This document shows, piece by piece, positions 7,401-19,460 of a stretch of DNA of 19,460 bases. Position 1 is the first letter of the stretch. Each line of letters begins with the position of its first letter. Made by a program: the position numbers and the translations under genes. The notes beneath the pieces were generated by a model. That model was not told the origin of the DNA. It saw only the letters and a list, made by a program, of their open reading frames with translations, and did no database searches. Source of the DNA: a virus (lineage: Duplodnaviria; Heunggongvirae; Uroviricota; Caudoviricetes); IMG/VR virus record IMGVR_UViG_2693429706_000003, one strand, 5' to 3'.

Positions 7401-7964
7401 ATGAGGCTAACCGTGGGTAAGCATCACTGGAAAGTAGAAAAACAGCCTGAGTGGTACGTGAAAGCTGTCAGAAAAACTATCGCGGCGTTGCCGGGAGGTT
7501 ACGCTGAAGCTGCTGAGTGGCTGGATGTAACAGAGAACGCTTTATTCAACCGCCTTCGTGCAGATGGCGATCAGATTTTCCCGCTGGGATGGGCAATGAT
7601 TTTACAGCGCGCGGCTGGCACTCACTACATTGCGGATGCTGTCGCACAGTCTGCTGGTGGGGTGTTTGTATCGCTTCCTGAACTTGAGGAAGTAGAGAAC
7701 GCCGATATAAACCAGCGCCTGCTGGAAGTCATCGAACAGATCGGGAGTTACTCAAAGCAGATTCGTTCGGCAATCGAAGATGGGGTAGTGGAGCCACACG
7801 AGCAGACAGCAATTAATGATGAGTTGTATCTGTCAATTTCGAAGCTCCAGGAGCATGCAGCACTGGTCTACAAAATCTTTTGCGCTCCAGAAAAGAGTGA
7901 CGCCCGCGAGTGTGCAGCTCCGGGCGTCGTGGCGTTTTGTGTCTGTGGAGAAACTAACGCATGA
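7401..7964 (+). CDS. CII-like phage regulatory protein (YdaT/CP76 family, tentative)
   Basis: 187-aa ORF directly after cro. Family call rests on position and overall resemblance only. An alternative GTG start at 7413 has an AGG 6 nt upstream. Confidence 0.45.
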   Translation: MRLTVGKHHWKVEKQPEWYVKAVRKTIAALPGGYAEAAEWLDVTENALFNRLRADGDQIFPLGWAMILQRAAGTHYIADAVAQSAGGVFVSLPELEEVENADINQRLLEVIEQIGSYSKQIRSAIEDGVVEPHEQTAINDELYLSISKLQEHAALVYKIFCAPEKSDARECAAPGVVAFCVCGETNA

Positions 7965-9109
7965 ACAGTTTAACGGCAAATAACCGTTTGTCGCAACAGC
8001 TGGTGGTCAGCGTCGCTGAACACCTGTTGTTACGGCATGAATGCAGATTACCAAATCACCTGGCTGTAAGTAACCACAGAGAACTTTACCTGACTGTGGG
8101 GGGCGAGTTGTGCAGGAACTTAACCGCTGGTTTCGTGACGGAAGAGGGCTTTATGTCCATGTTATTCGTTGGGAGCCAGAAACACAGCGCGTTATCTATC
8201 TTCGCAAAGACTACCCGCATGAGTGCTTTAGTCCTTTGTGGAAATTCAGGCGTGATTTTGTTGAGTGTGAAGGACCACCAGCACATTGATTCTGCCATTC
8301 CGGGACGTTACACTGTTCAGGCACCTTATAAAGCGGGTGTCGGGATTGGCGTCCTGGAAATGTTATCGGCGATATATGACGCGCCAGCGTCTTTTTTATC
8401 GTCTGCGTCTGTGCACACCCAAATTATGGTGGGCTGGACGGGGGCACCGAAAGGTGCGCCGGTTTCCGATAACGCCGGTTACGCCAACCCCGTTCAGTTC
8501 ACCACCAGCGAAATTGGCGTTTCCGGTGGTGAAGGTAATTCACTGTTATCGGAGACTGCCATCATGGCTACGATCCCAACCCTCACTCAACCTGAAATTG
8601 CCATCGTTGATGGTCAGGCTGTTACTTCATCCCTGGCTGTTGCCAACTTCTTCTCCAAACGTCATGACGATGTACTGAAAAAGATCCGCACGCTTGAATG
8701 TTCCGCATCATTCACTGCCCGCAATTTTTCGGTGAGTGATTACACCGATTGCACAGGCCGCAAACTACCTTGCTATCAAATAACCCGCGACGGCTTTGCG
8801 TTTCTTGCTATGGGTTTCACGGGTAAACGTGCTGCCCAGTTCAAAGAGGCATACATCAATGCCTTTAACCAGATGGAGAAACAGCTTTCAAAGCCCGCTG
8901 TACCGAGCGACGTTGCACATAACGCCAGCGTTCTCTATTCCTACATTTCATCAATTCATCAGGTCTGGTTGCAGCAGCTTTATCCCATGCTGGAAAAAGC
9001 TGAATCACCTCTGGCTGTAAGTCTGTATGACCGAATTAACGATGCGGCATTTCTTGCCCGTCTTATTCATTCGTCGCTGAACTCTTCAGAGGTAAGGGGG
9101 CGCAAATGA
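7961..9109 (+). CDS. Rha-family phage regulatory protein with a ~200-aa unrecognised N-terminal region (may instead be two genes, with Rha starting at ATG 8564)
   Basis: Residues from 'MATIPTLTQPEIAIVDGQAVTSSLAVANFFSKRHDDVLKKI' match the Rha domain as recalled. ATG 7961 overlaps the upstream stop (ATGA). Third-position GC favours frame 2 over the alternative frame in 8101-8220. GGAG lies 9 nt before the internal ATG 8564. Confidence 0.5.
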   Translation: MNSLTANNRLSQQLVVSVAEHLLLRHECRLPNHLAVSNHRELYLTVGGELCRNLTAGFVTEEGFMSMLFVGSQKHSALSIFAKTTRMSALVLCGNSGVILLSVKDHQHIDSAIPGRYTVQAPYKAGVGIGVLEMLSAIYDAPASFLSSASVHTQIMVGWTGAPKGAPVSDNAGYANPVQFTTSEIGVSGGEGNSLLSETAIMATIPTLTQPEIAIVDGQAVTSSLAVANFFSKRHDDVLKKIRTLECSASFTARNFSVSDYTDCTGRKLPCYQITRDGFAFLAMGFTGKRAAQFKEAYINAFNQMEKQLSKPAVPSDVAHNASVLYSYISSIHQVWLQQLYPMLEKAESPLAVSLYDRINDAAFLARLIHSSLNSSEVRGRK

Positions 9110-10321: not shown

Positions 10322-10810
10322 ATGAGTATTTTGAATGAAGTTCAGAAATTCATTGAAGCCCATCCGGGCTGTACTTCCGGAGACATTGCGGATGCTTTTG
10401 CAGGTTACTCACGGCAGCGCGTTCTGCAGTCAGCAAGCAAGTTACGTCAGAGTGGGCGTGTGGCTCACCGTTGTGAAGGAGATACACGCAGACATTTCTC
10501 GCGCCTGACTGAGAGAGCGCAGGAGCCGGAACCACAACCAGTTCGTGAAACCAGACCTGTGCGCAAGTTCTATGTCGGCACTAACGACCCCCGGGTGATT
10601 TTGTGCCTGACCCGCCAGGCTGAAGAACTGGAGTCGAGGGGCTTATACCGTCGTGCTGCAACGGTGTGGATGGCGGCATTCCGTGAAAGCCACTCCCAGC
10701 CAGAACGAAACAATTTTCTGGCGCGTCGTGAACGGTGTTTACGGAAAAGCAGTAAGCGGGCTGCATCAGGTGAAGAGTGGTATCTCTCAGGGAATTACGT
10801 GGGGGCTTAA
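10322..10810 (+). CDS. PerC-family transcriptional regulator-like protein
   Basis: 'AEELESRGLYRRAATVWMAAF' matches the PerC/Pch core as recalled. AGGGGG SD precedes ATG 10322; a GTG at 10316 is the ORF-track alternative. Confidence 0.5.
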   Translation: MSILNEVQKFIEAHPGCTSGDIADAFAGYSRQRVLQSASKLRQSGRVAHRCEGDTRRHFSRLTERAQEPEPQPVRETRPVRKFYVGTNDPRVILCLTRQAEELESRGLYRRAATVWMAAFRESHSQPERNNFLARRERCLRKSSKRAASGEEWYLSGNYVGA

Positions 10811-11463
10811 TGAGTAATAAATATTGCCAGGCGCTGGCGGAACTGCGGAACAAACCAGCCCATGAACTGAAGGAAGTGGGCGATCAGTGGCGCACGCCGG
10901 ACAACATTTTCTGGGGAATTAACACCCTGTTTGGCCCGTTTGTTCTGGATCTGTTCACTGACGGTGATAACGCCAAATGTGCTGCGTATTACACGGCGGA
11001 AGACAACGCGCTGGCGCATGACTGGTCAGAACGCCTTGCGGAGCTTAAAGGTGCTGCCTTTGGTAATCCCCCATACAGCCGCGCCAGTCAGCATGAGGGG
11101 CAATACATCACCGGCATGCGTTACATCATGAAGCATGCCAGTGCCATGCGTGATAAAGGCGGGCGCTATGTTTTCCTGATCAAAGCTGCCACCAGCGAAG
11201 TGTGGTGGCCGGAAGATGCAGATCATATTGCTTTTATTCGCGGGCGTATTGGTTTTGAACTGCCTGCCTGGTTTATCCCGAAGGATGAGAAGCAGGTGCC
11301 GACAGGCGCTTTCTTCGCTGGTGCTATTGCTGTTTTCGACAAGACCTGGAAGGGACCGGCAATCAGCTACATCGGGCGCGATGAACTTGAGGCATGTGGT
11401 GAGGCCTTTCTGGCGCAGGTTCGCCAGCAGGCAGAAAAACTGGTCAGGGAGATGGCGGCATGA
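10810..11463 (+). CDS. phage Dam-like N6-adenine DNA methyltransferase
   Basis: 'FGNPPYS' catalytic motif. ATG 10810 overlaps the upstream stop (TAATG); the stop overlaps the next start. Confidence 0.7.
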   Translation: MSNKYCQALAELRNKPAHELKEVGDQWRTPDNIFWGINTLFGPFVLDLFTDGDNAKCAAYYTAEDNALAHDWSERLAELKGAAFGNPPYSRASQHEGQYITGMRYIMKHASAMRDKGGRYVFLIKAATSEVWWPEDADHIAFIRGRIGFELPAWFIPKDEKQVPTGAFFAGAIAVFDKTWKGPAISYIGRDELEACGEAFLAQVRQQAEKLVREMAA

Positions 11464-13998: not shown

Positions 13999-14015
13999 TT
14001 TTGTGGAGAAAGTTG

Positions 14016-14387
14016 ATGCGTGATATTCAAATGGTTCTTGAACGTTGGGGGGCATGGGTGGCAAATAATCACGAGGATGTGGAATGGTCATCTGTTGCTG
14101 CAGGTTTTAAGGGATTAATTCCTTCGAAAGTAAAATCCCGCCCGCAATGTAGCGATGACGATGGCCTGATCATTAGCTCTGCAATGACAGTTCTTAAGAA
14201 AAAGGAACCGTATCAATACGAATTACTGGAAATGTATTATGTGTATGGGGTTACATTACGGGCGTTGGGGGTAAAACTGGGGATATCACTTAATCAGGTT
14301 GTTATCAGACTGCAGAAAGCTGAAGGGTTTATTGACGGTTGTCTGGCAATGTTGGGGGTATCTTTAGAAATTGATTGTTACATATAG
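14016..14387 (+). CDS. antitermination protein Q (QuuD/phage-21-type)
   Basis: Start at ATG 14016 with GGAGAA SD. 'MRDIQMVLERWGAWVANNHEDVEWSSVAAGFKGLIPSKVKSRPQC' closely matches my memory of DLP12 QuuD. Last gene of the early-right operon. Confidence 0.75.
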   Translation: MRDIQMVLERWGAWVANNHEDVEWSSVAAGFKGLIPSKVKSRPQCSDDDGLIISSAMTVLKKKEPYQYELLEMYYVYGVTLRALGVKLGISLNQVVIRLQKAEGFIDGCLAMLGVSLEIDCYI

Positions 14388-14425: not shown

Positions 14426-14460
14426 TAACCTCCTGATGATACCTGTTCATCGGGAGGTTA
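14426..14460 (+). promoter_or_regulatory. 14-bp stem-loop that sequesters the SD of the downstream AT-rich ORF
   Basis: TAACCTCCTGATGA (14426-14439) pairs with TCATCGGGAGGTTA (14447-14460): 13 Watson-Crick pairs plus one G-U, 7-nt loop. The right arm contains GGGAGG, 5 nt before ATG 14463. Confidence 0.45.
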
Positions 14461-14462
14461 TT

Positions 14463-15080
14463 ATGGATAAAAATGTAGAGCATGTATTAGTTGATGCAAT
14501 TGAAAATAAGCAATCTTTAACAGTCGTTTACTTAGGAGGGAGCCAGCCCGGAACATTAAGGAATATTTCTCCGATTAGTATAAATGGGGATAAATTGCGG
14601 GCAAGATGCCATAGTTCTGGAGCAGTAAAGGTTTTCAATCTTGGGAAAATACAGTTACCCAGTGACTCCTGCGCGGTATCTATGCACTATGGAGATTTAG
14701 AAGTTAAAGCTTATGAGACGATGCAGAGCGTAAATGACAACTTTCATGCCCTTTATCCTGAAGGACGATGGGGTGTTGATTTTAATGAGCATCGCTTTGC
14801 TTTATTTGATTTTTTTAAAAACGGGAAACGAAAAAAAACGGCATTTATGGCAATTGAGTTCAGGGAAAGAGATGAAGAGAAAATAATAACAGGTGTAACA
14901 ATTGATATTGGTATATCTGGAACAGTGATTTCTGAGAAGTCCCGAATCCCAAAAAGACGACCATGGGTAGTGGTTGGTCCCGAACACGGAGAATACAGTA
15001 CTTATTCAACTTTGGACAAGGCTGCTACAGCGTTTTTTGAGAGGCTTTCGTTGATAGCATCCGGCCTGGAAGATAATTGA
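14463..15080 (+). CDS. AT-rich hypothetical cargo protein with a possible N-terminal WYL-like domain
   Basis: 205 aa from ATG 14463. Markedly lower GC than its neighbours. 'LTVVYLGGSQPGTLRNISPISINGDKLRARCHSSGAVKVFNLGKIQL' fits the WYL-type pattern (Y...R.I.P...L.A.C...+.F.L.+I) by eye. Confidence 0.5.
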   Translation: MDKNVEHVLVDAIENKQSLTVVYLGGSQPGTLRNISPISINGDKLRARCHSSGAVKVFNLGKIQLPSDSCAVSMHYGDLEVKAYETMQSVNDNFHALYPEGRWGVDFNEHRFALFDFFKNGKRKKTAFMAIEFRERDEEKIITGVTIDIGISGTVISEKSRIPKRRPWVVVGPEHGEYSTYSTLDKAATAFFERLSLIASGLEDN

Positions 15081-15208
15081 TTTTATGTTTGGTATTCAGA
15101 GTTCGCCGTGCTTAAGAAAGTCAAGATTCTAAAAATACTGAATGAGCTACTTGTGTTATAACAAAAATGCTATTAGTGTGTTAAGAGTGGTTACTTCGCC
15201 ACACAACT

Positions 15209-15236
15209 TAAACCCGCCACTGAGCGGGTTTTTTGT
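15209..15236 (+). terminator. rho-independent terminator (possibly tR'-like)
   Basis: AACCCGC (15211-15217) / GCGGGTT (15224-15230) stem with CACTGA loop, then a T6 run. Confidence 0.7.
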
Positions 15237-15356
15237 ACCTGTAAACTTGGTGCAGTACAGTAAACACGCTGGTGGTCGTGAATACTGACTTTTTATCTTG
15301 CTGGATTTTTAGACAAGAGTTATTGGTATGTCATGTTAACCAGAAGGGAAAAAGAC

Positions 15357-15560
15357 ATGCTAAAACAGCAAGATATGACAGAAACCGCCGCCGCAGTCCT
15401 TCATTTCTTACCTGCTGACAAGTGGGTAACGCCACGCATGATGACGAGAACTACCGGAGTAAGCGAAGCCCGGTGCCAGTTAATACTGACTCAGTTAGTT
15501 CTGGCGGGTCTGGCGAAGGATAACGGCGGGTACGGGAATAAATTCAGACGCTGCCAGTAA
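15357..15560 (+). CDS. small hypothetical protein, possibly winged-helix DNA-binding
   Basis: Start chosen at ATG 15357 (AAGGGA SD 7 nt upstream), 67 aa. 'VTPRMMTRTTGVSEARCQLILTQLVLAGL' looks HTH-like. Confidence 0.4.
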   Translation: MLKQQDMTETAAAVLHFLPADKWVTPRMMTRTTGVSEARCQLILTQLVLAGLAKDNGGYGNKFRRCQ

Positions 15561-15710
15561 TGGCGGTTTCCTGCTGTGAAAATGGGCGGCTGGTGGGTGT
15601 TGGTAGCACCTGCCAGCCATTCGCTCATGCTTACTGGTCACAAGCGAACCACGGCCCACTGCTTTAGCGCAAAAGCAGAGTGAGCCTACCAGAGTTACGC
15701 TTACTGATCC

Positions 15711-16763
15711 ATGAAAAATACTGTAAAAATAAACAGTGCTGATTTAATCAACGCTGATTGCCTGCATTTTATTCAGTCCCTGCCTGATGATTCCATTGAC
15801 CTGATTGTTACCGATCCGCCGTACTTCAAGGTGAAACCCAACGGCTGGGACAATCAGTGGAAAGGGGACGAAGATTACCTTAAGTGGCTGGACCACTGTC
15901 TGGCCCAGTTCTGGCGGGTGTTAAAACCTGCCGGAAGCCTTTACCTGTTCTGTGGGCATCGCCTGGCATCTGATATTGAGATCATGATGCGTGAACGTTT
16001 CAACGTGCTTAACCATATCATCTGGGCGAAGCCGTCCGGACGTTGGAATGGGTGTAATAAAGAAAGTCTGCGCGCATATTTTCCTGCCACAGAGCGCGTT
16101 CTGTTTGCTGAACATTACCAGGGGCCATATCGCGGCAAAAGTGACGGCTATGCGGCAAAAGAAAGGGAACTCAAACAGCACATAATGGCACCGCTGATAT
16201 CGTATTTCAGGGATGCTCGTGCCGAACTGGGTATAACGGCAAAACAAATTGCCGAAGCCACAGGTAAGAAAAATATGGTTTCCCACTGGTTTGGTGCCAG
16301 TCAGTGGCAGTTGCCGAATGAGGCTGACTATCGGAAGTTACAGGCACTGTTTTCCCGTATAGCGGCAGAGAAGTTTCAGGAACAACAACTGGAACAACCA
16401 CACCACCAGCTGGTGGCATCTTATGATTCACTGAATCGCAAATATTCTGAATTGCTGGATGAGTTTAAATCTCTCCGGCGCTATTTCTCCGTATCAGTCT
16501 CCGTGCCTTATACCGATGTCTGGATGCATAAACCCGTTCAGTTCTACCCGGGTAAACATCCGTGTGAGAAACCGGCGGATATGCTCAGGCAAATAATCAA
16601 TGCCAGTAGTCGACCTGGTGATCTGGTTGCTGATTTTTTTATGGGATCCGGTTCCACAATAAAAGCAGCAATGGCGCTGGGGCGTCGGGCCTTAGGTGTT
16701 GAGCTTGAGTCAGAGCGGTTTAACCAGACAGTGAAAGAGATAAACGAGCTGGTGGGGAAATAA
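15711..16763 (+). CDS. orphan beta-class amino DNA methyltransferase (N6_N4_Mtase family, probably N6-adenine)
   Basis: 350 aa. 'DLIVTDPPYF' (motif IV) near the N-terminus and 'DFFMGSGSTIKAAMALGRRALGVE' (motif I, AdoMet binding) near the C-terminus give the beta-class order. No restriction endonuclease gene adjacent. Confidence 0.8.
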   Translation: MKNTVKINSADLINADCLHFIQSLPDDSIDLIVTDPPYFKVKPNGWDNQWKGDEDYLKWLDHCLAQFWRVLKPAGSLYLFCGHRLASDIEIMMRERFNVLNHIIWAKPSGRWNGCNKESLRAYFPATERVLFAEHYQGPYRGKSDGYAAKERELKQHIMAPLISYFRDARAELGITAKQIAEATGKKNMVSHWFGASQWQLPNEADYRKLQALFSRIAAEKFQEQQLEQPHHQLVASYDSLNRKYSELLDEFKSLRRYFSVSVSVPYTDVWMHKPVQFYPGKHPCEKPADMLRQIINASSRPGDLVADFFMGSGSTIKAAMALGRRALGVELESERFNQTVKEINELVGK

Positions 16764-16830
16764 TCTGGTGTCCACGTCAGGTGGCCTTTTTATTTCCATT
16801 ACACAGCACCCGCATCTGCGAGGTGGGGTT

Positions 16831-16878
16831 ATGAAATCCATGGATAAGTTAACAACGGGTGTCGCCTATGGCACCTCA
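16831..16878 (+). CDS. 5' fragment of an S21-type pinholin gene, truncated by the assembly gap
   Basis: GAGGTGGGG SD then 'MKSMDKLTTGVAYGTS', matching the dual-start N-terminus (Met1/Met4) of phage 21 / DLP12 EssD holin as recalled. The ORF runs into the N block. Confidence 0.55.
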
Positions 16879-16888
16879 NNNNNNNNNN
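16879..16888. other. assembly gap (10 N)
   Basis: Literal run of n characters. Contiguity between the prophage and copA cannot be assumed. Confidence 0.99.
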
Positions 16889-16955: not shown

Positions 16956-19460
16956 TTATTCCTTCGGTTTAAACCGCAGCAACCGGTTGGCGTTACTCAC
17001 TACGGTAATCGACGAGAGCGCCATTGCCGCTCCGGCAACTACCGGGTTAAGCAGTGTTCCAGTGAACGGCCACAAAATACCGGCGGCGACCGGAATACCG
17101 ATACTGTTGTAGATAAACGCACCGAGCAGGTTCTGCTTCATGTTGTGCAGCGTTGCGCGGGAAATAGCGAGCGCATCCGCAACGCCCATCAGGCTATGGC
17201 GCATCAGGGTAATCGCCGCGGTTTCAATGGCAACATCACTGCCGCCACCCATCGCAATGCCGACATCCGCCTGAGCCAGCGCTGGCGCGTCGTTAATGCC
17301 GTCGCCCACCATTGCCACCTGACGTCCTTCACTTTGCAGATGTTTGATCGCTTCGGCTTTACCGTCCGGCAGCACCCCGGCGATCACCTCATCAATCCCT
17401 GCTTCTTTGGCGATCGCATTGGCGGTGGTTGGGTTATCCCCGGTCAACATCACCAGACGATATCCCGCTTTATGCAGGCGTTGCAGCGCCGCCACGCTAT
17501 CACTACGCAATGGATCGCGTACAGCCAGCAGGGCTACTGCTTTCCCGTCAATCGCCAGCAGCACAGGCGTTGCTCCTTGCGATGCCTGAGCTGAAATATC
17601 GGCTTCAATCGCTTTAGTATCGACTTGCTGATCATTTAACAACGCCTGATTGCCCAGCAATAACGCATGACCTTCAGCTTCACCGCTCACGCCCAGCCCG
17701 CGCAATGTGCGGAAACCGTTGACCTGCGGTAGCTGCATATCGCCTGCTTTATCGAGGATCGCTCGTGCCAGCGGATGGCTGGAACCTTGTTCCAGTGCCG
17801 CCGCCAGACGCAATGCCTGCGCTTCATCAACATCAGCAAATGTTTTCACTGCGACAACCTGCGGCTTCCCTTCGGTCAGCGTCCCGGTTTTATCGAACAC
17901 GACGGTATCGAGTGTACTGGCGCGTTGCAGCGCGTCGGCGTCCCGCACCAGCACGCCAAACTCAGCCGCCCGCCCGACGCCGGAAATAATCGACATCGGC
18001 GTCGCCAGCCCCAGCGCACACGGACAGGCGATAATCAGTACCGTGGTGGCAATCACCAGGGTATAAACAATTTGCGGTGCCGGACCAAAGAAGTACCAGA
18101 TTGCCGCACTGACCAGCGCAATCACCACCACCACAGGTACAAATACGGCTGAGATTTTATCCGCCAGCTGACCGATTTCTGGCTTGCTGCTCTGGGCCTG
18201 GCGCACCATGCGAATGATCCGTGACAGCGTGGTATGGCTGCCAACCGCACTGGCACGAAACAGCACACTGCCGTCCTGTACCACTGTCCCGGCATGGACG
18301 CTTTCGCCTTCGCCTTTTTGCTGTGGGATTGGTTCGCCCGTCAGCATCGCTTCATCCAGCCATGCTTCGCCCTGGGTAATCTCGCCATCTACCGGCACGC
18401 GATCGCCGGTCGTCAGGCGCAGTAACATCCCTGGCTGAACTTCCGCCAGCGGCACGCTTTTTTCACCCTCTGCGGTGACCACTCGCGCCGTCGGTGGGGT
18501 TAAATCGAGTAATTTCTCCAGCGCCTTAGAAGAACGCTGACGTGCGCGCGCTTCCAGCATATGGCCGAGATTAATCAGACCGATAATCATCGCACTGGCT
18601 TCATAGTAAAGATGCCGCGCTTCCATCGGGAACCACTGCGGCCACAGGTTGACGCTCATCGAATAGAGCCACGCCACACCCGTTCCCAGCGCCACCAGCG
18701 TATCCATCGTCGCTGCACCGTTCAGCAGGCTTTTCCATGCACTGCGGTAAAAATGGCCGCCGGCGAAAACCATCACTGCCAGGGTTATCAGGCCGATAAC
18801 TAACCACAAGCTGCGGTTGTCAGCGGTGACCATCATGTTATCGCCGATCATCCCCCAGACCATTACCGGGATACCCACAGCCAGTGCAACAATTGCCTGC
18901 CAGCGGAAGCGCTTCATCGTAGCTACGGCGGTTTCTTGCTGGCGCTCGCGGCGTTTAGCGTCATCTTCAATCGCTTCCGCACCGTAGCCCGCTTTTTCCA
19001 CCGCCTGCACTAAATCTTGTGGGGAGGCACTGCCCATCACCAGCGCAGTACGCTCCGCCAGGTTTACCCGTGCCTGAGTGACGCCCGGTACGCTTTGCAG
19101 CGCATTTTGTACGCGGGTGACACAGCTGGCGCAGCTCATGCCGCTCAGCAGCAACTGCTGGCTGTCATCGTCATCGGCGGTCGCTGCCGGAAGCGCCTCA
19201 GAAACCGCTGTCAGTGCTTCCGACGGGATTGATGACTCCGCCAGCGGTTTAGCCTTTGGGTGGCTTACAGATGCGTCATAACCCGCTTGTTTGATGGTTT
19301 CGATCAGCTGTTCTGCACTGGCAGTCCCGGTAACGTGCGCTTCAGTGATAGACACATCCGCCTGCTCAACATCCGGGCGCTGTTCAAGACTTTCTTTCAC
19401 GCGTTTAACGCAGTGACCGCAGGACAGGCCGTCCAGGGTCAGGTCGATAGTTTGTGACAT
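16956..19460 (-). CDS. copA: copper-exporting P1B-type ATPase CopA
   Basis: 834 aa, full length. Two N-terminal CxxC metal-binding domains (GLSCGHC, GMSCASC), CPC membrane motif, DKTGT phosphorylation site, GDGINDAP hinge. Sequence matches E. coli CopA as recalled. Confidence 0.95.
19254..19260 (-). promoter_or_regulatory. copA: copA programmed -1 ribosomal frameshift slippery heptamer (C CCA AAG)
   Basis: Minus-strand CAC CCA AAG GCT at codons His67-Pro68-Lys69. A -1 slip reads CCC AAA GGC TAA, ending a 70-aa product, the size reported for CopA(Z). Confidence 0.6.

Follow-up and report, generated by a model that had tools for sequence, protein, structure and literature searches.

The window analysed here is a stretch of 19,460 nucleotides (nt) from a virus of the class Caudoviricetes (IMG/VR record IMGVR_UViG_2693429706_000003). 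At positions 15357 to 16763 it holds a cassette made of a small open reading frame (ORF), a structured RNA leader and a DNA methyltransferase gene, which we call the methylase:

15357..15560, plus strand: conserved winged-helix protein of 67 amino acids (aa) (phrog_331, E 4.6e-26); alternative 75-aa start at 15333
15577..15710, plus strand: conserved structured RNA leader of the methylase, about 135 nt (fold, covariation and fixed position)
15711..16763, plus strand: M.EcoGII-family beta-class N6-adenine DNA methyltransferase, 350 aa, ATG start (PF01555)

The order of the cassette is terminator, 67-aa winged-helix ORF, leader of about 135 nt, methylase, terminator, holin. Its best explanation overall, and one that we consider very probable, is a late-operon methylase cassette of a lambdoid prophage, of the M.EcoGII type and with a conserved structured leader. 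The enzyme family is very common in Escherichia coli, where at least 80% of the 1.86-kb region of the cassette is present in 965 of 5,426 complete genomes, and in many Shiga-toxin phages stx2 comes immediately after the cassette. How a toxic methylase of this kind is controlled in lysogens, and how much of the enzyme is made in lytic growth, has so far only been guessed at. Placement in the late operon behind terminators, together with a conserved leader, makes the question of control concrete and testable.

The methylase matches PF01555 (N6_N4_Mtase) over residues 29-341 (E 2.2e-42; Pfam). Motif IV, DPPY, is at aa 35-38 (nt 15813-15824) and motif I, FFMGSGS, at aa 309-315 (nt 16635-16655). 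Both motifs are intact, and motif IV ahead of motif I is the beta-class order. No endonuclease gene adjoining the methylase was found in the window or in at least 20 related phages; the neighbours are the antiterminator gene Q, a WYL-like ORF, the small ORF and the holin gene. The initial annotation, made from the letters of the window alone, had described an orphan beta-class amino-methyltransferase with no cognate endonuclease. That description holds, with a PF01555 domain, DPPY before FxGxG, no endonuclease gene adjacent in the window or in those phages, and a motif IV that is intact in sequence. By itself the methylase is ordinary. Its sequence already exists in public phage entries, as the annotated “DNA methylase” of mEp460 (100% identity), and the methylases of phages cdtI, Ayreon and SfV are 98-99.7% identical to it. 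Against M.EcoGII, 281 of 349 aligned residues are identical (81%, with 2 gaps; 350 versus 349 aa), a value that is only approximate because the reference sequence is a machine-read PDF copy of Supplementary Table S1 of PMC11551740 with a few obvious reading errors. By region, M.EcoGII and the window methylase are 89% identical in their N-terminal catalytic part and 77% in the region for target recognition (60 of 78 at residues 160-237). The window methylase is also 89% identical to the reconstructed ancestor Anc291, 64.5% to PhiOS31_p25 from Serratia phage OS31, and 53% to ARM81ld_p56 from Aeromonas phage phiARM81ld. Among the loci compared, the closest public relative of M.EcoGII is in phage 1720a-02 (93%), where the layout of small ORF, leader and methylase is found likewise. 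Judged by its sequence, the window methylase is an intact member of the M.EcoGII family without an endonuclease partner.

Several members of this family have been characterized. M.EcoGII, encoded by a prophage of E. coli O104:H4 C227-11, methylates adenine in DNA and RNA non-specifically; it is silent in that strain, and its expression does harm (PMC5778455). Both the silence in lysogens and the toxicity are described in PMC5778455 and PMC12707154. Anc291 is active and non-specific, and methylates DNA and RNA in vitro (PMC11551740). PhiOS31_p25 protects DNA against six enzymes sensitive to N6-methyladenine (m6A) that have differing sites (HinfI, PfeI, SchI, Hin1II, Tru1I and TasI), and ARM81ld_p56 is reported to lack sequence specificity (PMC7556043). 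The window methylase resembles M.EcoGII (and M.EcoGI) in its beta-class architecture, in the intact DPPY and FxGxG motifs, in being prophage-borne and in the lack of an endonuclease. Because relatives at 81%, 89%, 64.5% and 53% identity are all non-specific or relaxed, non-specificity looks like a trait of the whole clade in which the window methylase falls, and from its family membership the window methylase would modify adenines in essentially any sequence context. The initial annotation had alluded to a family with relaxed or non-specific methylation, and its allusion was apt, given the 81% identity to M.EcoGII and the experimentally non-specific relatives at 89%, 64.5% and 53%.

The leader, in contrast to the methylase, has not come up in Rfam 15 or in our literature search. 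Its predicted fold is a three-way junction plus a hairpin:

15583-15587/15654-15658, plus strand: leader helix P1, five-pair closing helix
15588-15601/15605-15618, plus strand: leader hairpin P2, 14 pairs
15620-15625/15643-15648, plus strand: leader hairpin P3, interrupted
15659-15665/15672-15678, plus strand: leader hairpin P4, separate
15682-15688, plus strand: leader conserved motif GAGCCUA, with the AUG 23 nt further on

The minimum free energy of the window leader is -55.4 kcal/mol (z -3.05 versus shuffles). Nucleotide similarity at 15574-15718 persists in Providencia and Serratia phages, even in those without the small ORF. By eye, the element is present in phiKO2, N15, PY54, VHML, and in Vibrio and Aeromonas phages, where the sequences of the hairpins vary and the pairing is kept. 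Conservation from E. coli to Vibrio extends to the nucleotides left unpaired in the junction and the loops. We judged covariation against controls with slid pairing partners and against shuffles, a comparison that ignores the kinship of the sequences. In a plain MAFFT alignment of 20 leaders, 83% of the cells are paired (33-44% when slid), and 18 pairs are doubly changed (6-11 in the controls). For 56 distinct leaders, in an alignment fitted to a covariance model and with its pairing for that reason somewhat inflated, 88.9% of the cells are paired versus 29-45% in the controls, 29 of the 31 pairs have compensatory changes, and the compensatory cells number 382 versus 40-74 in the slid controls. 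None of 500 shuffles reaches any of the observed measures, and the MAFFT result and the raw sequences agree with those of the fitted alignment. An independent set from 37 species genomes gives 86% paired cells versus 32-38%. When 14 highly divergent leaders were aligned with plain MAFFT and folded with RNAalifold, only P1 was recovered, because hairpins of unequal length were misaligned; a closer seed set and the covariance model solved this. A fifth hairpin, P5 (AGCC...GGCU), proposed by eye, is 50% paired, no better than the controls, and was not retained; differences of register between clades may hide it.

The position of the leader is as conserved as its fold. A covariance model built from the 20-sequence alignment finds exactly one match in each of 62 of the 94 related loci, and all of these matches have the orientation of the coding strand and adjoin the 5’ end of the methylase or, where a Com-like ORF comes before the methylase, of that ORF. 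A scan of viral contigs for the pattern only, ignoring the gene, produces 121 matches, 120 of which have a methylase start exactly 23 nt after GAGCCTA. In the remaining match (L348:2146-2252), an internal deletion has removed the catalytic DPPY half of the methylase and joined the leader to the remaining 3’ portion (...EKPAEMLQQ onward). When the pattern scan is applied to species-representative genomes, it reports 78 places. A methylase follows in 36 of them; the distance to its start codon is 23 nt for 35 of these and 164 nt for the one in Pseudaeromonas. These 36 score between 69 and 144 bits by the model, and carry mostly Enterobacterales titles, besides Pseudaeromonas and three other names. 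The other 42 pattern matches have no methylase downstream, belong nearly all to unrelated taxa, and none is recognised by the model. The leader is a conserved structured RNA specific to this methylase gene family.

In Rfam 15, the leader has no match at gathering scores, nor does 15575-15713 on the plus strand have any at E up to 10. Anti-sRNAs (antagonists of small RNAs, sRNAs) of the AgvB/AsxR type, or StxS, considered as the source of the conserved non-coding parts, have no Rfam match here either (PMC4104026, PMC7547250). Neither the leader nor the small ORF was found described in our literature search; its coverage is incomplete, and an earlier account is possible. Within the bounds of Rfam 15 and of that search, the leader is a candidate new RNA family. 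The initial annotation had looked to the small ORF for a regulator, and had missed the leader RNA, the most regulator-like element of the 150-nt gap.

The cassette is flanked by features of a lambdoid late operon:

14001..14387, plus strand: late-gene antiterminator Q (PF06530 Phage_antitermQ, E 5.2e-48; phrog_79)
14436..15080, plus strand: WYL-like cargo ORF, 40% GC, 205/214 aa (phrog_8498, E 3e-126), context only, outside the cassette
15151..15179, plus strand: candidate late promoter pR’ (-35 TTGTGT at 15151-15156, 17-nt spacer, -10 TAGTGT at 15174-15179), inferred by position, weak consensus
15210..15235, plus strand: intrinsic terminator hairpin AAACCCGC-CACTGA-GCGGGTTTTTTG, tR’-like, perfect 8-bp inverted repeat and T run, the 5’ boundary of the cassette
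16763..16790, plus strand: terminator-like hairpin in the methylase-holin interval, with an 8-pair stem and T-rich tail by consensus scan
16831..16878, plus strand: 5’ end of a holin of the essD type, translation MKSMDKLTTGVAYGTS; RefSeq has essD here in near-identical prophages

The hexamers of the candidate pR’ were read by eye, and placed by analogy with better promoters at the equivalent site in relatives. There, sigma-70-like hexamers occur just 5’ of a conserved GTTAAGAGTGG...terminator block: TTTACA-16-TATGCT (L092), TTGCGG-17-TATCCT (phiP27) and TTGCAT-17-TAAGAT (SfV). Homology to other phages begins at 15162-15211. Sites homologous to the 15210-15235 hairpin are annotated as terminators in SfV and Ayreon, and sites homologous to the 16763-16790 hairpin are annotated so in SfV, Ayreon, phiKO2 and N15. 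SfV and Ayreon are annotated with the order that runs from Q through terminator, small ORF, methylase and second terminator to the holin. It is found likewise in mEp460-type prophages, and recurs with differing Q types and cargo in 1720a-02, Stx2a_1447, phiP27, Hafnia and Providencia phages, and E. coli and Salmonella prophages. Stx2a_1447 and phiP27 have tRNA genes and stx2 genes 3’ of the methylase, and the 1720a-02 record goes from the methylase straight to a truncated stx2A with a resistance marker. In the linear-plasmid prophages N15 and phiKO2, the methylase comes directly after an annotated late promoter and terminator and ahead of the holin, and in PY54, VHML, and Vibrio and Aeromonas phages it stays beside holin or lysis genes. 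The conservation of this methylase-holin linkage from E. coli to Vibrio and Aeromonas phages indicates that the methylase is a long-standing gene of the late operon. The initial annotation had put it in a cargo slot; this is correct in that the slot from Q to the lysis genes does hold cargo, and incorrect for the methylase itself, whose linkage to the holin is kept. The fixed late-operon place of this methylase family, from lambdoid to N15-like and Vibrio phages, appears to be new, within the same bounds of Rfam 15 and an incompletely covered literature. The account of M.EcoGII (Murray et al. 2018, PMC5778455) does not mention the position between Q and holin, the leader RNA or the winged-helix ORF.

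In lambdoid phages, pR’ is constitutive and is terminated just downstream (at tR’) in lysogens, and Q relieves this termination upon induction (PMC7547250). On the most economical reading of its position, the methylase would lead the late transcript as its first gene of substantial size, and be off in the lysogen; we infer this silence from the flanking terminators and from the place downstream of Q. Q would let RNA polymerase pass the terminators downstream of the late promoter, and only then would the methylase be transcribed. The enzyme would be made alongside the lysis and structural proteins, and would not be expressed in the lysogen, to which an enzyme of this kind is toxic. Progeny DNA would be marked before packaging, and would in this way be shielded from m6A-sensitive restriction enzymes in the next host. 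This late-gene reading fits the silence and the toxicity of M.EcoGII and the anti-restriction role proposed for it.

Two side observations concern the region between Q and the small ORF. The slot between Q and the cassette is occupied in relatives by a reverse-strand 483-aa AAA_15/AAA_21 ATPase, by reverse-strand ORF pairs or by a 1.2-kb ORF, and looks like a variable slot, possibly a hotspot for defence genes. The ORF that fills it in the window is called “WYL domain-containing” in RefSeq, yet it scores 16.3 bits for Pfam WYL versus a cutoff of 21.8. On the minus strand, 15202-15338 has the only sub-threshold Rfam match in these non-coding parts, to the Enterobacterial sRNA STnc130 (31.6 bits versus a gathering score of 55, E 0.0088). 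The match ends at the terminator 15210-15235, which looks bidirectional, and may represent an sRNA transcribed convergently, such as those described for moron sites at pR’ (PMC4104026).

On the right-hand side, a run of 10 N (16879-16888) interrupts the holin, and it is followed by sequence like repetitive extragenic palindromes and by copA on the minus strand (16956..19460). A 601-bp query across the junction has no single match of at least 80% coverage in the 5,426 complete E. coli genomes. A near-identical prophage in a complete genome continues with essD, rrrD (lysozyme), Rz, terminase and structural genes. Because of the 10-N run, the lack of any genome that spans the junction, and the continuation of complete prophages, the truncation of the holin is most likely a scaffold join or misjoin.

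The small ORF is a 204-nt coding sequence (CDS) annotated by RefSeq in near-identical prophages. Some 150 homologs share its invariant RCQLILTQL core, the most distant at about 50% identity, and NCBI names some of them “TrmB family transcriptional regulator”. The versions at about 50% identity have the equivalent position, 149-150 nt upstream of the methylase. An AlphaFold2 model from 25 sequences (predicted local distance difference test score 87.6) has three helices, H1-H2-H3, and a beta-hairpin, in a winged-helix topology. With this model, Foldseek retrieves winged-helix domains only (among them Z-alpha, the IclR N-terminal domain, TrmBL2 and SelB), with weak E values of 5e-3 or above. The matches to Pfam MarR_2, TrmB and DprA_WH are sub-threshold; no Pfam helix-turn-helix (HTH) family reaches its threshold, and there is no HTH_3-type match. 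The initial annotation’s small HTH-like ORF upstream of the methylase is borne out as a conserved gene (phrog_331) with a confidently predicted winged-helix fold. The small ORF precedes the methylase in 91 of the 92 loci with a methylase at least 80% identical to that of the window, and in roughly one of two loci in the 60-70% class. N15, phiKO2, PY54 and Serratia OS31 keep the leader and the methylase and have no small ORF upstream. The winged-helix protein is an accessory partner, not required for methylase activity.

The likeness of the small protein to Z-alpha domains (TM-score, for template modelling, 0.84 to 1qbj) was considered and discarded: as we read the sequence, the helix-3 Asn and Tyr that define Z-alpha are not conserved, the E values (at least 5e-3) are weak, and generic winged-helix domains score equally. 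Some homologs of the small ORF (P0052-P0057) are mosaics, “TrmB-named” in the N-terminal half and like the window in the C-terminal half, a sign that recombination may have taken place inside this 200-nt gene. Over the last codons of the small ORF there is a hairpin (15550-15567) that is degenerate in the window (GCTGCCA-GTAA-TGGCGGTTTCC). The equivalent hairpin in 1720a-02/O157-type relatives (L084:2330-2365) is a strong terminator, GCCTTCAG-TCC-TGAAGGCTTTTTTATTT, directly before the leader, so that some phages have two serial terminators upstream of the methylase.

We considered other explanations for these features. The gap of 135 nt that separates the small ORF from the methylase might form no RNA structure, and be instead a small protein-coding ORF, or conserved promoter or operator DNA. 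A 35-aa ORF (15576..15683) overlaps the gap, and its single-stranded parts are highly conserved in sequence. Nonetheless we find this extremely improbable given the compensatory double substitutions in the stems (29 of 31 pairs, 382 cells versus 40-74 when slid) and the failure of a consensus scan to find a promoter-like site in the gap. Moreover, the length of P2 differs between clades by non-multiples of three, such as 31 nt in E. coli versus 26 nt in N15, for which reason the gap is not a hidden coding region. It is just as improbable that the prophage is decaying and the cassette a dead relic, with no current function. The holin is interrupted in the window and copA follows it, but the interruption coincides with the 10 N, and the junction is in no complete E. 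coli genome. All three elements of the cassette are intact and identical or nearly so to those of the viable phages mEp460, cdtI, Ayreon and SfV, and the 965 E. coli genomes that carry at least 80% of the 1.86-kb region also argue against a relic.

Instead of acting non-specifically against restriction, the enzyme could be an orphan methyltransferase that recognises a defined sequence and serves an epigenetic or regulatory purpose, as Dam, CcrM and YhdJ do. The window methylase shares the beta-class fold with CcrM, M.RsrI and YhdJ, its best solved relatives in the Protein Data Bank (PDB) are sequence-specific enzymes (E about 1e-24), and 23% of its target-recognition residues are unlike those of M.EcoGII. 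Even so, a sequence-specific role is in our view very unlikely: the match to the PDB relatives is confined to the catalytic core whereas the 81% identity to M.EcoGII is full-length; the scores for the NCBIfam models PRK11524 (YhdJ type; 110.6 bits versus a cutoff of 292) and CcrM (68.6 bits versus 830) are both under the cutoff; and far more diverged relatives (64.5% and 53%) are still relaxed or non-specific. Another alternative, which the initial annotation had raised, is that the small ORF and the methylase are a pair like that of a restriction-modification (R-M) system, with the 67-aa protein as a controller that represses or times the transcription of the methylase. The layout resembles that of the C proteins of Type II R-M systems, also small upstream ORFs of a DNA-binding-type fold that adjoin a methylase, and in phages of E. 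coli, Salmonella, Hafnia and Providencia the small ORF is tightly paired with the methylase at an unvarying distance of about 150 nt. Known C proteins are of the Xre-type HTH, whereas the fold predicted here is a winged helix and all Pfam HTH families are under threshold. Neither an endonuclease gene nor a C-box-like operator was found at the locus: inverted repeats upstream of either gene are unconvincing as operators, the only one being a 14-nt repeat with 79% complementarity, and the gap is filled by an RNA structure with no recognisable promoter. Further, the ORF is dispensable, as N15, phiKO2, PY54 and Serratia OS31 have leader and methylase without it, and M.EcoGII cloned by itself is active (PMC5778455). 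An R-M-style controller is for these reasons an unlikely role for the small ORF, though less remote than the other alternatives.

Within the late-operon cassette, we next ask what the conserved leader might do. No Shine-Dalgarno sequence was found within about 12 nt of the methylase AUG. This, the fixed spacing, the conserved unpaired nucleotides and the Com-like ORF in Vibrio and Aeromonas phages suggest post-transcriptional control in cis, and we put at roughly even odds that the leader acts in cis on the translation of the methylase, where it would tune the translation of a toxic enzyme. The effector could be the methylase itself, the winged-helix protein or a small ligand, each of these being less probable than control in cis as such. 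A more elaborate proposal, which we hold only tentatively and regard as possible but not likely, is that the leader is an undescribed RNA family working as a post-transcriptional safety switch for the toxic methylase, an operator or a riboswitch. As an operator, it would be bound by the methylase, from a family known to bind and methylate RNA, or by the 67-aa winged-helix protein, and would be a functional analogue of the com-mom system of phage Mu made from different parts. Winged helices are able to bind DNA or RNA. As a riboswitch, it might sense a metabolite such as S-adenosylmethionine (SAM) or S-adenosylhomocysteine (SAH). Different phage lineages would then have plugged a winged helix, a Com-like zinc finger or nothing into an RNA-controlled module. 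If the leader does respond to a protein or a ligand, it would be a new class of regulatory RNA and a handle for the controlled expression of EcoGII-type enzymes, which are in wide use as reagents (chromatin footprinting, MadID and RNA m6A tools). If the leader is not a switch, what remains is an ordinary member of a known enzyme family.

Some of our results speak against parts of this picture. For the late transcript, the consensus promoter scan found no late promoter, and the candidate pR’ matches the consensus at 3 of 6 bases per hexamer. For the specificity, the 81% identity to M.EcoGII carries the reading errors of its reference, and M.EcoGII has other residues at 18 of the 78 target-recognition positions; few substitutions can be enough to shift specificity. 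For the leader, the predicted accessibility of the start region in the window equals that of shuffled leaders (z -0.01), which leaves translational control unsupported in the window. Across relatives the accessibility is mixed, strongly reduced in Vibrio phages and slightly raised in the N15/phiKO2 types. The candidate pairing GAUCA/UGAUC between leader and start region is conserved and has no significant compensatory change.

Simple models of how the leader could hide the start codon were tried and set aside. Sequestration of the start site gives a mean z of -0.83 for predicted accessibility versus dinucleotide-shuffled leaders, and is strong only in Vibrio and some enteric phages; because the effect is nil in the window and positive in N15/phiKO2, simple sequestration has no general support. 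RNAalifold on the seed set proposes an alternative fold, with AUGGG/CCCGU, a pairing of UGAUC, adjacent to the AUG on its 5’ side, with GAUCA of the P3 loop, and AGGC/GCCU, that we keep as a hypothesis only. Over the 56 leaders these helices are 57-91% paired, and their double changes are reached by 347 of 500 shuffles. Duplexes from loop to start codon calculated per sequence have partners that differ by clade, with no common rule.

The com-mom system of Mu offers a possible functional parallel. Mom is the product of a toxic DNA-modification gene that ends the late genes and is silent in lysogens, and Com controls its translation by binding a hairpin in the mRNA. The two systems have in common a toxic and broad anti-restriction modifier that is silent in lysogens (PMC12707154), a small ORF, a structured mRNA by a start codon without a normal ribosome-binding site, and, in the Vibrio and Aeromonas relatives, a Com-like ORF at this place. 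They differ in that Mom is not a methyltransferase, in that the small protein of the window is a predicted winged helix with two cysteines and no Cys4 zinc finger, and in that its ORF is upstream of the RNA and does not overlap the target gene. The Com-like ORFs themselves are Cys-rich and sit between leader and methylase in two N15-like phages, Vibrio phage Val-yong3 (L100:1362-1478) and Aeromonas phiARM81ld (L102:1362-1577). One copy is mis-annotated as “RNA polymerase subunit P”, and the leader precedes the Com-like ORF at an equally short distance. PhiOS31_p25 and ARM81ld_p56 share with the window the methylase family, the place just before the holin and an RNA leader upstream; OS31 differs by having no winged-helix ORF, and phiARM81ld by the Com-like zinc-finger ORF between leader and methylase. 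Autogenous operators (the E. coli thrS leader, T4 genes 32 and 43) and riboswitch leaders also resemble the window leader, as structured and conserved 5’ leaders at a fixed distance from the start codon, and the genes share that they encode a nucleic-acid-binding enzyme. This parallel would be an analogy only for the way the leader may work: the leader has no Rfam match, and the predicted occlusion of the start codon is inconsistent across the family.

The prophage has a second adenine methyltransferase elsewhere in the window:

10810..11463 (start 10777 or 10810), plus strand: phage Dam-type N6-adenine methyltransferase (PF05869)

Its ORF matches PF05869 with E 1.2e-45 and 155.7 bits (Pfam cutoff 28.1), and the equivalent 654-nt CDS is named “phage N-6-adenine-methyltransferase” by RefSeq in near-identical prophages. 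Since the PF05869 enzyme and the PF01555 enzyme are both present, the prophage carries two unrelated adenine methyltransferases, and the initial annotation’s view of the cassette methylase as the second one next to a Dam-like enzyme is corroborated. Finally, the only matches of the window to Rfam at gathering level are two regions on the plus strand, isrK at 8321-8397 (61.5 bits) and the C4 antisense RNA at 8422-8509 (82.8 bits). They lie inside the ORF 7961..9109, and this isrK/C4 region is a P1/P7-type RNA for antirepressor control.

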